Source of the DNA: Candidatus Bathyarchaeota archaeon
GTDB lineage: Archaea > Thermoproteota > Bathyarchaeia > TCS64
DNA length: 64,000 nt
Assembly: GCA_963769425.1 (NCBI GenBank)
Contig: CAVYLP010000006.1
Coordinates: 512,001-576,000, forward strand
Reading direction: 5' to 3'
Shown: positions 6,860 to 12,547 of the stretch, in pieces
Position numbering within the stretch: the first letter of the stretch is position 1
Layout of the letters: every line of letters begins with the position of its first letter
The notes under the pieces: model-generated
What the model was told of the DNA's origin: nothing
Databases searched by the model: none
Seen by the model: the letters and a program-made list of their open reading frames with translations, nothing else
Made by a program: the position numbers and the translations under genes

Positions 6860-7130
6860 CTATATTTTAGAAGGCATCTCACCTTACGCATCTTATATAC
6901 TTTTGGTTTATCAGAGCGCTGATGTTTGACATAATCTTGTTAAGTACGGATGGTTTTGGATGATCCTCTCATCCCTTTTTTGGGTCGGAGATGGGTCAGA
7001 AGGAAGCGAGGGAAAACTCCGACAATTAAGATCATTTACGCACTTTTGTAAATATTCGATATTAACGGAGATCTATTTTAGCCCTATTTTTTCAAGTGGA
7101 GCCTTTTTGAGCAAAGAGGCGAGTTCTCCC

Positions 7131-7733
7131 CTATTTTTCGGATATACGACGTATGTATTCTAGATCCTTGGCAGTGTCGACATCCATGAGGGATTTCAGG
7201 TTGGGATCAATGGCTCTAATCTCGTCCATTGGGACTCGCGTAACGTCAGGTAGAGTGTCAAGGATTAACCTGAGTCTCTTCTCCCCCGACTCGATTAGTA
7301 CTAGGGCAGCGTCGGATGCCTTCCTCGACCTATAGACTGAGTGGAGGGGTTCGACCCAGCCGTTCGGCCAGTATGGCGTAGCTGCATCGTGCCCTGCAGC
7401 CTTAGCGAAGAGAAGCTCGACGACGCGTGGGTCGATGAGGGGTTGATCACCGCCGGTGAGGAAGGTGTACTCGCCGCGCGCCTCTTTTAGGCCAGTATAT
7501 GCTCCGACGAGTGGTGAGCCTCGGGGGAGGCGATCGGCGACGACTCTTGCACCGAAGGACGCGTAAGCCTCCTTCTGAGCCTTTGAGCCAACGACTATTA
7601 CAATATCTTCGACGATGGGTTTGAGCCGCTCAACAATGTGGGTAATTATGGGTTCCCCGTTAAGGATTATTAGCCCCTTATCTCCGCCCATTCGGCTGGA
7701 TTTTCCTCCCACGAGGACCACGGCTGAGCGCAT
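7131..7733 (-). CDS. mobA: Molybdenum cofactor guanylyltransferase
   Basis: VLVGGKSSRMGGDKG, SPLVG, GDQP, EPLHSVY; probable start ATG 7733. Confidence 0.88.
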   Translation of the reverse strand: MRSAVVLVGGKSSRMGGDKGLIILNGEPIITHIVERLKPIVEDIVIVVGSKAQKEAYASFGARVVADRLPRGSPLVGAYTGLKEARGEYTFLTGGDQPLIDPRVVELLFAKAAGHDAATPYWPNGWVEPLHSVYRSRKASDAALVLIESGEKRLRLILDTLPDVTRVPMDEIRAIDPNLKSLMDVDTAKDLEYIRRISEK

Positions 7734-7868
7734 TACAACTCTTCTTATTGATGTATGCGGTGAAAAAGATTGCATATAGCCTACGGTTTTGTAGTTGATT
7801 AGCGAGCTGTAAATGGTTGCGATCTAGATATCCAGAAGTAGAGAATAGCTAAAACCAGGGGATGTTTC

Positions 7869-7929
7869 TGTACCTCTAGCACGCAAACTGTACCCTATGG
7901 GAGAATATTTGGTACCCGGTAGGAGGGTA
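7869..7929 (+). repeat. One good copy (7911-7929) and two decayed copies (7869, 7889) of the GGTACCnnGTAGnnGGGTA motif
   Basis: ggtacccggtaggagggta at 7911; tgtacc at 7869 and 7889 gives 20 and 22 bp spacing. Confidence 0.6.
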
Positions 7930-8016
7930 TAGCGATTTCTCCACATTTAATCTCAACAGGGGGGATTACACGCACTGTGGTGTAACCCATGTTTGATTAT
8001 TGGCTGAACGTTAATC

Positions 8017-8415
8017 TCATCTCGGCGACCGCGCCGGCCTTATTGCGCCCCTGTCGGGTAGGCCAAGCCTCCACGCTGGCGCCCCGGTCATCTTGTGGAC
8101 GGCCTCGGGGAGCGAGAGGGCGTCCCCACCCACGTAGCGCTGGAGGACGCGTGGGAAGGTGCCGAAGCTCCTCGGGTGCACCGGGGAGGTCAAGCCACCC
8201 CGCTCGGATGTCCCATCGGAACCTATCATGACCGCCTCGTGCCTCATTAGGACCCTGATGTCGTCCTCGAGGCCGAAGAGGCATGAATGGGACGTTATCG
8301 TCCTCGGTGACGATGATGTCGTATGCGGTGTCGATCGGGTCTCGCTTCAGCTCGTCTGCTATCTGCTTGACCGTCTTTCCGCTGTATGCCCGGTATGCTT
8401 CGCTCTCCAGGTAGC
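8017..8415 (-). pseudogene. Internal fragment of an N-acyl-D-amino-acid deacylase (amidohydrolase)
   Basis: GKTVKQIA...DPIDTAYDII, then after a frameshift near 8280 VMIGSDG...HPRSFGTFPRVL...LSLPEAVHKMTGAPAWRLGLPDRGAI; N- and C-terminal parts are absent. Confidence 0.85.
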
Positions 8416-8425
8416 ATGTTAACCA

Positions 8426-8639
8426 TGTGCCTGGTAGCTGGGTACCGGCGGTACCCACTAGCAGGGTACATGGTACCTAGTAGCAGGGTACAGGTGCACA
8501 TATCCGTGCAAGTTGGTACCCAGTAGGAGGGTACCACGGTACCTAGTAGCAGGGTATACGGTACCCTGTAGGGGGGTACGCGGTACCCAGTAGGGGGGTA
8601 TAACGTTTTTTCATTGTCTCTGTACCATGTAGCAGGGTA
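8426..8639 (+). repeat. Tandem array of 8 copies of a 19-bp quasi-palindromic motif, period about 22 bp
   Basis: Copies start at 8426, 8450, 8472, 8515, 8538, 8560, 8582 and 8621; consensus GGTACC(C/T)AGTAG(C/G)(A/G)GGGTA; a further decayed copy lies at 8763-8781. Confidence 0.9.
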
Positions 8640-8859
8640 CCGCAATTTTCCGCGTGTCTGTTCCCCGTCGGGAAGGTGTGGTGCGTAGCTGGTTGTGTGT
8701 GTATTCCTCGTAGTTTAGGTATCGAAAAAAAACGCCATTTTTGTACCTGCCAATAGGAATCAGATTCCTAGTAGGGTGGTATGGCTCATTGGCTGAACTC
8801 AATTAATTCTATCACATCGGACAATATCCTTAATCCGGCTGATAGGCTCATAGACCTCA

Positions 8860-9237
8860 ATGTCCAGGATATTTAACGTGAATGAAGCTCGGAAGTCCAT
8901 GAATCCAGGTGTTAGCGACATGTACTGGCTTGTCGACAAGGACCTCGGTGCATCAAAGTTTATGACGGTTCTCTACGAGTACCAGCCTAACTTCTCTACA
9001 AAACGTGTCCACTACCACGAGAAGCGCGAAAGTGCCTATATAGTCCTCGAAGGGGAAGCCCGCATCCATCTTAATGGCGAAGACCACATCCTACATCCAG
9101 GTGATGCTGCCTACCTCTCACCAATGGATATCCACGGCGTTGTCGGCTCAGGGCCAAAGGGACTCAAGATGATTGAGATATGGGCACCGCAAGAGAAGGA
9201 TGTCATCTACCTCGAGGACGGCAAGGTAGTAGAGTGA
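8860..9237 (+). CDS. Cupin-domain protein
   Basis: HYHEKRESAYIVLEG and GDAAYLSPMDIHG cupin motifs. Confidence 0.9.
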   Translation: MSRIFNVNEARKSMNPGVSDMYWLVDKDLGASKFMTVLYEYQPNFSTKRVHYHEKRESAYIVLEGEARIHLNGEDHILHPGDAAYLSPMDIHGVVGSGPKGLKMIEIWAPQEKDVIYLEDGKVVE

Positions 9238-9416
9238 AACTTAACAGGATCCCCGAAATCTGATTATCGTACCCGTGGAAACCTACCCCATGAATAGCTG
9301 GGTGTATCTCACTTTCGTGTACTCGGGATGAAAACATGGTTGCCTATACTTGGGATGAACCTGGTCACGGGGATCATTAGAGCCAGGATATCGAGTTGGA
9401 AAAAAAGGGGCCTGCT

Positions 9417-10388
9417 TCATTTCTGATATTGTAAAATTACGAATGTGTTTGGCAAGATCGGCGGGCGAGGCCTCGGTTGCTCGACCGTGGGTTCAGGCGT
9501 CGGGCCGTATTCTGCGGTTGGTAGAAATAGAGCATGTGTCCTAAGGTCGATTGTCATGGTTCGCGCCCCACGCTGAGTCGCGATCGTATCCAGAATGGAG
9601 AAGCTATCCGGAGAATCCTCTCTTACGATCGTCAGGGTTCCCTCCCCGTTGGACGCGAAGACAAGTTTCCTCTCGGGGTCAAACATGCAGCCATCGCAGC
9701 CGCCGCCAATCGGTAACGAGGCGAGTACGCGCCCGTCGTCGGCGTCTAGCACGATCATGAACTTGTTGCGGGTCACCGAGAAGAGGCGCCGATTCTTCAA
9801 GTCAATGGCGAGCCCAGTGGGGGACTCTCCGGGTGCGATAGGCCACCTTGATAGGACCTCAAGCGTCTTCGAGTCGATCACCATGACCTCACTCGTGTCC
9901 TCGTTGTTGACGTAGACGTGCCCCAGACCGTCCGCGACGGAGAACTCGGGTTTGCCGCCGAGGGGAATGGTCGCTATGACCTCTCCGGTCGCCGCGTCAA
10001 TGACGGACGCATCGTGGCTAACGCCGTTGAATACGAAGACCCTCTTCGAGGACGAGTCGAAGCGGATGGCGTCCGGGTTTTTACCCACGGCTACCTCCTT
10101 CATGACCTTCAGGGTATTAAGGTCGAAGATGCTCACCGTCGAAGCGCGTCCGTTGCTCGCGAAGCCTCGTCCAAGCTCGCTGGCAATCGCCACCCCGTGC
10201 ACCCCCTCGGTCTTGAAGACCACGCCGACCACATCGAGTGTGTCCGCGTTTAGGACGTGGACCCTGTCGTTGTGGGTGACGTAGAGGCGACGCGCCGCTT
10301 CGTCGACTACCAGGTAGTCCCATCCTCCCTCGCCACCTATGAGGAGTTTTCTAGTCAAGTGGTAACCCGATGGTGATTTGCCCGCCAT
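9417..10388 (-). CDS. YVTN/YncE-type beta-propeller protein
   Basis: GGEGGWDY start; repeated blades (HGVAI, NPDAI, GKPEF, PTGLAID); GARTM. Confidence 0.85.
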   Translation of the reverse strand: MAGKSPSGYHLTRKLLIGGEGGWDYLVVDEAARRLYVTHNDRVHVLNADTLDVVGVVFKTEGVHGVAIASELGRGFASNGRASTVSIFDLNTLKVMKEVAVGKNPDAIRFDSSSKRVFVFNGVSHDASVIDAATGEVIATIPLGGKPEFSVADGLGHVYVNNEDTSEVMVIDSKTLEVLSRWPIAPGESPTGLAIDLKNRRLFSVTRNKFMIVLDADDGRVLASLPIGGGCDGCMFDPERKLVFASNGEGTLTIVREDSPDSFSILDTIATQRGARTMTIDLRTHALFLPTAEYGPTPEPTVEQPRPRPPILPNTFVILQYQK

Positions 10389-11895: not shown

Positions 11896-11948
11896 GCGCA
11901 AGAGAGAAAGGAGAAGGGGGCTGAATATAACTTTTCAGCTACCCGATC

Positions 11949-12284
11949 TCAGTGCGCCTTCGAGGTCTTACGGATAAGCTCGACGGCCTTCTCGTCGCCG
12001 TGGCGGGCTCTGTACGCTTCTATCCCAGCCCTGTAGACGGCACTCCTCCTCCCCTCGGGGTCGTTCGGGTCGAACATCTCCACGAATTTGTCGCAGGGGA
12101 ACTCACCGCAGGCGCCGCAGTGCTTCGCCTTGTGCTCCTGCGCGCAGGTGTAAGTCGGGCATGTCCCCCAGAAGGGCTTGCCCTTGATCTCCGTGCAACC
12201 AGCGCAGCTCGGCTGCTTTTCCCCCGTGTGCCACTCGCATGAGCCACAATCTAAGCCGCATGGACTCATCATCGTTTTAGTCAT
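11949..12284 (-). CDS. Cys-rich DUF3795-like protein
   Basis: CGLDCGSC...CAGC...C...C...HCGACGEFPC; start placed at ATG 12284 because the longer ORF runs into tRNA-Pro. Confidence 0.8.
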   Translation of the reverse strand: MTKTMMSPCGLDCGSCEWHTGEKQPSCAGCTEIKGKPFWGTCPTYTCAQEHKAKHCGACGEFPCDKFVEMFDPNDPEGRRSAVYRAGIEAYRARHGDEKAVELIRKTSKAH

Positions 12285-12437: not shown

Positions 12438-12547
12438 AGCACCCGGTTAATCGTAGCGGCTGCGTTTTATCTTTATCCCCCCGCAGGGGTTGTCTTGGGA
12501 ATTTATTTGACAGTGAAAGCTAAAAAGAGGGGGTGTAACTAGATTAT

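Follow-up and report, generated by a model that had tools for sequence, protein, structure and literature searches.

What is the array of eight copies of GGTACCYAGTAGSRGGGTA that occupies one strand between positions 8426 and 8639 of the 64-kb stretch of archaeal DNA analyzed here (hereafter the window; C6:512001-576000 of a six-contig, 2.55-Mb assembly, G000, which is 91% complete)? An eight-unit array accompanied by an A+T box resembles plasmid iterons, and the preliminary description of this DNA had compared the array with iteron origins, centromere-like partition sites, and recombination-site arrays. On the evidence below, the window locus is most unlikely to be an origin of replication, a centromere, or a locus-specific switch, and the origin and centromere reading is dropped for it. 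Because it is a member of a dispersed family and was inserted at the cost of a neighboring gene, it is better described as a REP/BIME-like repeat, and we lean, with some reserve, toward regarding it as a lineage-specific, probably mobile, mosaic repeat whose units would be stem-loop or dyad sites for a putative trans-acting protein. Arrays of this kind break short-read assemblies, can inactivate genes, and could pass for origins, centromeres, or operators.

Organization of the array in the window

A position matrix gave eight plus-strand units from 8426 with start-to-start distances of 24, 22, 43, 23, 22, 22, and 39 bp (mean unit spacing, ~22.2 bp), the same steps as those of the eight same-orientation copies reported in the preliminary description. 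When the consensus was searched with up to three mismatches, ten matches were found in the window, all on the plus strand, against an expected 0.08, and none of 100 shuffles had more than one match; TRF reported a period of 22 bp over 8449-8600 (6.9 copies, score 125). With four mismatches, the first unit, at 8426, fits the consensus least well. The 43-bp step is explained by a linker (Table 1) that three homologous arrays carry in equivalent form at the same place, and the 39-bp step to the terminal unit recurs in most cassettes of the family described below. Two ORFs, of 116 and 153 aa, overlap the array and matched no Pfam family; because a period of 22 bp is incompatible with a repeated peptide, the array is non-coding. 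The suggestion that bound sites would lie on one face of the helix does not strictly fit this spacing, since ~22.2 bp is slightly more than two turns and successive sites would rotate.

Table 1. Features of the repeat element and its flanks, in window coordinates
Position	Strand	Feature	Remarks
7911..7929	+	Outlying unit GGTACCCGGTAGGAGGGTA	One mismatch to the consensus; spacer unit, with the MobA-like gene on one side and the amidohydrolase remnant on the other
7997..8407	-	3' remnant of an Amidohydro_3 pseudogene	Truncated by the repeat element, frameshifted; no Pfam hit
8408..8425	+	Left junction of the repeat DNA	Degenerate unit-like CCAGGTAGCATG straddles the junction (8407-8418)
8426..8490	+	Units 1-3	8426-8444 (weak), 8450-8468, 8472-8490
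8491..8514	+	24-nt non-unit linker	Small hairpin, TGCAC 8495-8499 / GTGCA 8506-8510
8515..8600	+	Units 4-7	Starts 8515, 8538, 8560, 8582; 0-1 mismatch each
8599..8611	+	Conserved box TATAACGTTTTTT, running into T6	Common to ~20 cassettes
8621..8639	+	Terminal unit TGTACCATGTAGCAGGGTA	Starts 39 bp past the start of unit 7
8688..8761	+	Second module	Degenerate GATTCC-type unit, A8/T5 stretch, inverted unit ACCTGCCAATAGGAATC
8763..8795	+	GATTCCTAGTAGGGTGGTA unit and tail	Exact family member
8828..9237	+	Return to unique sequence	TATA-like CCTTAATCC at 8828, Cupin_2 gene at 8860-9237; both in G002

A GATTCC inverted-dimer module with an A/T stretch interleaves with unit arrays in mosaics, the window region 8688-8795 included. 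Copies of 8688-8761 that are 74-79% identical lie at C3:170441, C3:176587, C3:378925, and C6:958059. The unit at 8763, which had been taken for a decayed copy of the array unit, in fact belongs to a sister subfamily: it is an exact GATTCCTAGTAGGGTGGTA, a unit with 11 identical copies genome-wide; it abuts its inverted partner at 8744-8761, the two together forming an imperfect palindrome of ~2 x 18 bp, and repeat homology stops at ~8795. The inverted dimer ACCTGCCACTAGGAATC-N-GATTCCTAGTAGGGTGGTAT (window 8744-8795) could fold into an ~18-bp hairpin that contains an internal loop. Elsewhere in the genome, the inverted-dimer module is found at C3:264019-264282, C3:378738-378999, and C6:437506-437678, in copies that are 91-95% identical; it repeats at 43-, 45-, and 66-bp steps, and CCTGCCACTAGGAAYC stands at both its start and its end.

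Support for the array in independent reads, which the preliminary description had asked for, was obtained for part of its length. A 186-nt contig from an independent run aligned to 8597-8781 free of substitutions and with a single gap, and a second contig spans 8472-8612 with 16 differences, whereas none of the contigs from the four DNA runs spans the whole array. That no single public contig does so would be expected to speak for a neutral minisatellite or an assembly artefact, a reading to which we give practically no chance: the independent 186-nt contig agrees with the assembly at every aligned base, three homologous arrays with identical internal architecture occur elsewhere in the assembly, and conservation of the unit is position-specific.

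A dispersed family of intergenic repeats

The array units belong to a family that extends over the whole genome. The 19-mer with up to two mismatches matched 27 times, against none for the reversed control, and the genome-wide matrix scan that had been proposed as a check gave, upon iteration, 167 units in 56 clusters, against 14 units with the reversed matrix. Spacings between units on the same strand peak at 21-24 bp (50 cases), 43-45 bp (17), and 65-66 bp (12). Conservation is concentrated in CC (positions 5-6), GTAG (9-12), and GG (16-17), at 1.2-1.9 bits each, and information is low (0.1-0.8 bits) at positions 7-8 and 13-15 and in the linkers. This uneven pattern, in which constraint falls on CC, GTAG, and GG and spares positions 7-8 and 13-15 as well as the linkers, bears out the earlier argument that recognition and not slippage has shaped the unit. 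The non-uniform constraint also fits a factor acting in trans, as had been suggested.

The arms around the core are complementary above chance. Outer arm positions were Watson-Crick pairs in 312 of 635 cases, against 262 +/- 9.6 when the arms were shuffled between units, and none of 2000 shuffles reached 312; this moderate excess comes from pairs 3-5, numbered from CC/GG toward the outside, and has faded once pair 6-7 is reached. At least six arm pairs are complementary (GGTACC/GGTACC, TGTTCC/GGAACA, TGATCC/GGATCA, CTGTCC/GGACAG, ATTCC/GGAAT, and ATACC/GGTAT), and non-palindromic subfamilies exist as well (GTTCC...GGTGTC and GACTCC...GGTTCC). Because the excess of G-T over A-C combinations (80 to 34; ratio, 2.35 versus 1.84 in shuffles) is mostly compositional, it indicates no folding strand, and the fold z-scores of the strands were alike (-4.2 for plus-strand DNA, -5.2 for plus-strand RNA, and -4.3 for minus-strand RNA). 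Judging from the sequences, the covarying arms would favor recognition of a stem shape together with the invariant GTAG over a regulator that reads the arm bases. A model in which separate units pair into stems that carry GTAG as a 5' tag was rejected; it works inside arrays alone and fails for single units.

Larger blocks are shared between loci. The 210 bp at 8434-8643 are 77-79% identical to C3:290534-290744, C4:178028-178238, and C4:396486-396675, and the internal order of units, hairpin linker, units, box, and terminal unit is common to these three homologues. Blocks of other subfamilies, 173-712 bp in length, have 89-95% identity between loci. A shared module, consisting of N units, (T/G)ATAACGTTTTTT, ~9 nt, and one terminal unit, is present in ~20 cassettes at ~16 loci spread over five of the six contigs; the box varies among cassettes as (T/G)ATAACG(T/A)TTTTT, and the arms of the cassette units differ (GGTACC, GTTCC, ATTCC, GATCC, and ATACC). 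All 16 cassette loci fall between ORFs, and the sequence downstream of the terminal unit is unique at each of the four GGTACC arrays. In several cassettes (C5:80858, C6:641479, C1:235751, C6:495075, and others), a unit-like CCAGTAGAGGTA(G/C)GCCTTGC occurs 50-90 nt past the box; the hairpin that follows the CCAGTAGAGGTA motif has one compensatory stem difference, GCGAGG versus GCAAGG, and could be a short transcript.

The genes next to the cassettes have little in common. Thirty flanking proteins are unrelated, including ribosomal protein S15, RpoB, an ABCE1-like protein, D-aminoacyl-tRNA deacylase, thiolase, TatC, and QueT, and a Pfam search found no transposase, integrase, Rep, or Par among them; two of the 30 are receiver domains. 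Of the 20 cassettes, 12 share the orientation of the gene downstream and 10 that of the gene upstream, which is no better than chance, and the units have no placement bias toward gene 3' ends. Two single-domain response-regulator receiver genes, at C2:142302-142751 and C4:396864-397391, are each convergent to a cassette and lie 226-265 bp from the box, which may be a coincidence or a duplicated flank. A master copy was sought as a gene bracketed by inverted arrays, and a single inverted pair was found (C6:260082-/260357- and 323705+/323998+). This pair was rejected as a mobile element because it encloses 63 kb of core genes, among them those for RpoB and S15. The inverted composite blocks, of two cassettes each, lie 63 kb apart at C6:260040-260620 (minus strand) and C6:323400-324060 (plus strand), and could be the substrate or the scar of a large inversion.

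Insertion at the amidohydrolase locus and distribution among relatives

In G002, a genome of the same genus, the corresponding locus consists of a MobA-like gene, an intact amidohydrolase gene, an A+T-rich spacer of 590 bp, and a cupin gene, in this order, and the array is absent from this spacer at the orthologous site. The G002 amidohydrolase is 527 aa long and matches Amidohydro_3 at an E value of 9e-32. The remnant in the window aligns to residues 332-383 of this protein with 73% identity and then continues as frameshifted sequence. From this comparison, ~390-420 bp of repeat DNA took the place of ~1 kb of amidohydrolase coding sequence and the old spacer; the amidohydrolase gene was inactivated by the arrival of the repeat element. 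A contig of the X4 run tracks window 8022-8407 and then diverges into unlike sequence. The G002 spacer that corresponds to the 7911 region contains GATTCC-type units on the opposite strand. On the cupin side, CCTTAATCC lies ~32 nt ahead of the ATG and is kept in G002, which suggests that the cupin gene mRNA is leaderless or has a very short leader.

At a second locus, the spacer at C4:177784-178320 measures 537 bp in G000, ~143 bp in G008, and ~50 bp in G009, and arrays are missing at both orthologous sites in the sister genomes. The tandem-core pattern CCNNGTAGN{13,16}CCNNGTAG had 86 matches in G000, against 7 for the control, and among the other 300 genomes of the class none had more than 17 and most were close to their controls. 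The expansion was confined to G000 among the 301 genomes, a restriction that may be overstated because short-read bins make up most of the remaining genomes, and such fragmented assemblies may lack their repeats. Exact 19-mers are present in 5 of 61 relatives, G000 included, and G002 has a few GATACC-armed units with a 22-bp spacing.

These data can be brought together in a tentative scheme. The building block is a head-to-tail unit of 21-24 bp with the conserved core CC-NN-GTAG-N2-3-GG; on either side of it, most subfamilies have 3-4 more bases that are complementary though subfamily-specific. Whole modules, comprising units, (T/G)ATAACGTTTTTT, and a terminal unit, would have been copied to ~16 intergenic sites, and the number of units would then drift through tandem gain and loss. 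The copy in the window would have arrived in this lineage and removed ~1 kb of the amidohydrolase gene together with the old spacer. A putative trans-acting protein may recognize the invariant GTAG together with the closing C-G pairs, whether these are presented by a stem-loop or by a duplex dyad, and might spread or maintain the repeats, by analogy with RAYT for bacterial REP/REPIN. We infer mobility as the cause of the dispersal; dispersal by recombination instead of transposition is possible.

Comparison with known elements and competing readings

Bacterial REP/BIME repeats of the GTAG type are extragenic imperfect palindromes of ~20 bp with an invariant GTAG, which occur in many copies and fall into subfamilies (PMC3733652), and bacterial REPINs are mobilized by RAYT Y1 transposases (PMC3116915); the portion of the REP survey considered here lists GTAG repeats for bacterial phyla only (PMC3733652). 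As far as the portions of these sources considered here describe such repeats, the present family resembles them in its short, GTAG-bearing palindromes, its strictly extragenic position and many copies, its subfamilies with differing yet complementary stems, its clustering in mosaics with other motifs, its inverted dimers able to form long hairpins (here 8744-8781), and its lineage-specific expansion. Like REPs, which measure 20-40 bp, the units are short imperfect palindromes able to form a stem-loop, with the exception of some subfamilies that are not palindromic. The differences are that GTAG lies between the arms, in the loop position, whereas in REP, according to the same portions, it stands at one end outside the stem; that no Y1/RAYT gene, and so no cognate RAYT flanked by the repeats, was found; that there is no 3'-end placement bias; that the host is an archaeon; and that head-to-tail arrays dominate. 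By analogy, the element would work like REP/BIME, yet it falls outside the GTAG-REP family because of the loop position of its GTAG and the absence of a RAYT.

Searches for a mobilizing enzyme covered several families. PF01797 (Y1/RAYT) had no match in G000, with positive controls matching in 6 of 14 genomes, and PF07282 (TnpB) had no hit in G000 either. Phage_integrase gave one hit in the genome, at the distant C4:282254, and rve one sub-threshold hit, at C6:213988. An all-against-all BLASTP comparison of 2,546 crude ORFs found only small multi-copy families, none of which adjoins arrays, and neither a terminal inverted repeat nor a target-site duplication was seen at the boundaries that could be defined, those of two subfamilies. 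The family is similar to MITEs in being non-coding, 100-700 bp long, and dispersed, with insertion polymorphism between close genomes and copies that are 89-95% identical; it is unlike them in that terminal inverted repeats, target-site duplications, and a related autonomous IS were not found. The ~170 GTAG-core units in ordered arrays without RAYT suggest either convergent hairpin repeats or a new mobilizing enzyme. It is conceivable, if on the doubtful side, that the family is an archaeal counterpart of REP/REPIN-RAYT that dispenses with Y1, its GTAG-loop units, in inverted dimers and in head-to-tail arrays with a 22-bp period, being copied and maintained by a single-copy host enzyme and its box and terminal unit forming a processing or priming end or an outward promoter.

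A locus-specific role as iteron origin, partition site of the centromere type, or array of recombination sites, the comparison made in the preliminary description, has in its favor the eight same-orientation units of ~19 bp at ~22-bp spacing and the short A+T-rich box alongside. The iterons of theta plasmids are, as commonly described, same-orientation repeats of ~19 bp (17-22 bp) with a period of ~22 bp, in 4-8 copies next to an A+T-rich stretch, and the array agrees with them in the orientation, length, and spacing of its repeats. It differs in that its A+T box is only 13 bp long, that no rep gene is adjacent, its flanks being the amidohydrolase remnant and the cupin gene, and that it occurs not at a single locus but at ~16 dispersed chromosomal loci beside unrelated genes. 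The ORB and mini-ORB repeats of archaeal oriC are likewise dyad-containing and have a G-run; in contrast to inverted ORBs around a DNA-unwinding element with orc1/cdc6 adjacent and a skew switch, the window array has all its units on the plus strand, no orc1/cdc6 nearby, and many loci. The earlier observation that the 64-kb window holds no cdc6 or integrase gene was confirmed; the sole Cdc6_C (PF09079) hit in G000 lies on a different contig, at C1:24396-24674, and no array unit was found within the 3.3 kb around it. The GC-skew switch that had been suggested as a check was not seen, the skew being +0.081, +0.046, and +0.078 in three 2-kb bins and the cumulative skew rising throughout. With respect to parC/parS, which occur at one or a few loci beside parA/parM and adaptor genes, no ParA/ParB-type Pfam hit occurs among the 30 flanking proteins, which also lack Rep and integrase, and the element is again present at ~16 loci. 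Since an element that is multi-copy, dispersed, and, as its absence from the orthologous site of G002 indicates, dispensable is hard to reconcile with an origin, a centromere, or a locus-specific recombination array, we hold this reading to be highly improbable.

The box between the last array unit and the terminal unit raises the question of transcription. The motif GAAAAGGTTTTAAT, a BRE/TATA-type promoter obtained from the sequences that precede 42 tRNA genes in G000, starts ~40 nt ahead of the mature 5' ends of the tRNAs (for example, at window 11896-11955 and 12438-12497, minus strand) and is useful for promoter annotation in this lineage. Against the tRNA-promoter matrix, the boxes scored 2.0-9.1, with a tRNA median of 11.2; scores of at least 6 are reached by 0.3% of all positions in the genome. 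The likeness of the box is to the BRE half of tRNA promoters, a T-run standing in place of the TATA part. The box is possibly a promoter that is weak and depends on a factor, or else a terminator of the oligo-T type, and gene orientation supports neither. In a fuller form of the former idea, the cassette would be a promoter under array control, with the units as operators, ATAACG and the T-run as a weak BRE/TATA, and the terminal unit over the transcription start, and its copies would rewire neighboring genes or drive short non-coding transcripts. The fixed place of the box, which follows the last array unit and precedes a terminal unit ~39 bp farther on, is consistent with such a cassette, as are the likeness of ATAA(C/G)G to the BRE half of GAAAAGGTTTTAAT, the co-orientation of the downstream gene at 9 of 16 loci, among them that of the cupin gene 261 bp away, and the existence of 'mobile promoters' in prokaryotes, as described in the part of the source considered here (PMC3575422). 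We nevertheless consider it unlikely: the box scores below the tRNA median and has no counterpart of the A that is nearly invariant in the TATA part, the orientation of cassettes with respect to genes is at chance level, and the cupin gene retains its own TATA-like element at 8828, as in the array-free G002.

Two further readings assign the arrays a structural or an RNA-level role. The units could serve a nucleoid or chromosome-architecture protein as landing pads, the 22-bp repeat permitting polymerization along DNA, and the spread of ~16 loci over five of the six contigs, the spacing that stays regular over gaps (43-45 and 65-66 bp), and the conserved core with variable arms would all agree with this. 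An essential architectural system is expected to be conserved, so the absence of arrays from two orthologous sites in sister genomes and an expansion in one of 301 genomes count against it; moreover, the 43-66-bp steps are partly occupied by degenerate units or other modules, and the idea seems to us quite unlikely. The array might also be transcribed into up to 8-10 stem-loops with GUAG loops ending at a U-run, which would act as a protein sponge, a terminator, or an insulator. The T6-7 run that follows the last array unit in ~20 cassettes and the plus-strand RNA fold z-score of -5.2 point in this direction, yet both strands fold with similar z-scores, no more than 10 of 20 cassettes have an upstream gene in their own orientation, the window copy is 5'-truncated and has no conserved upstream promoter, and a search of Rfam with window 7000-10000 returned no match at E values up to 1. 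A transcribed hairpin array is, on this evidence, very unlikely, and a REP/BIME-like mosaic repeat is the description that we prefer.

A search of the open-access literature, limited in scope, found no published account of such archaeal arrays. Matches to the box plus unit in other sequence collections, in which records close to G000 may be missing, were set aside. In a genome-contig collection, 42 loci matched, of which five were read and proved coding or unrelated and 37 were judged by their record titles. In metagenome contigs, five loci matched, four of them protein-coding and one a non-coding simple repeat, all unrelated to the family; three of the four coding matches represent one conserved motif, which we take to be that of an acyl-CoA synthetase. 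Among the genome-contig matches, a gammaproteobacterial MAG (contigs L052, L058, L062, and L082) contains four classical, GTAG-headed REP copies (GTAGGCCGGGATAAGG...), which are unrelated to the archaeal family.
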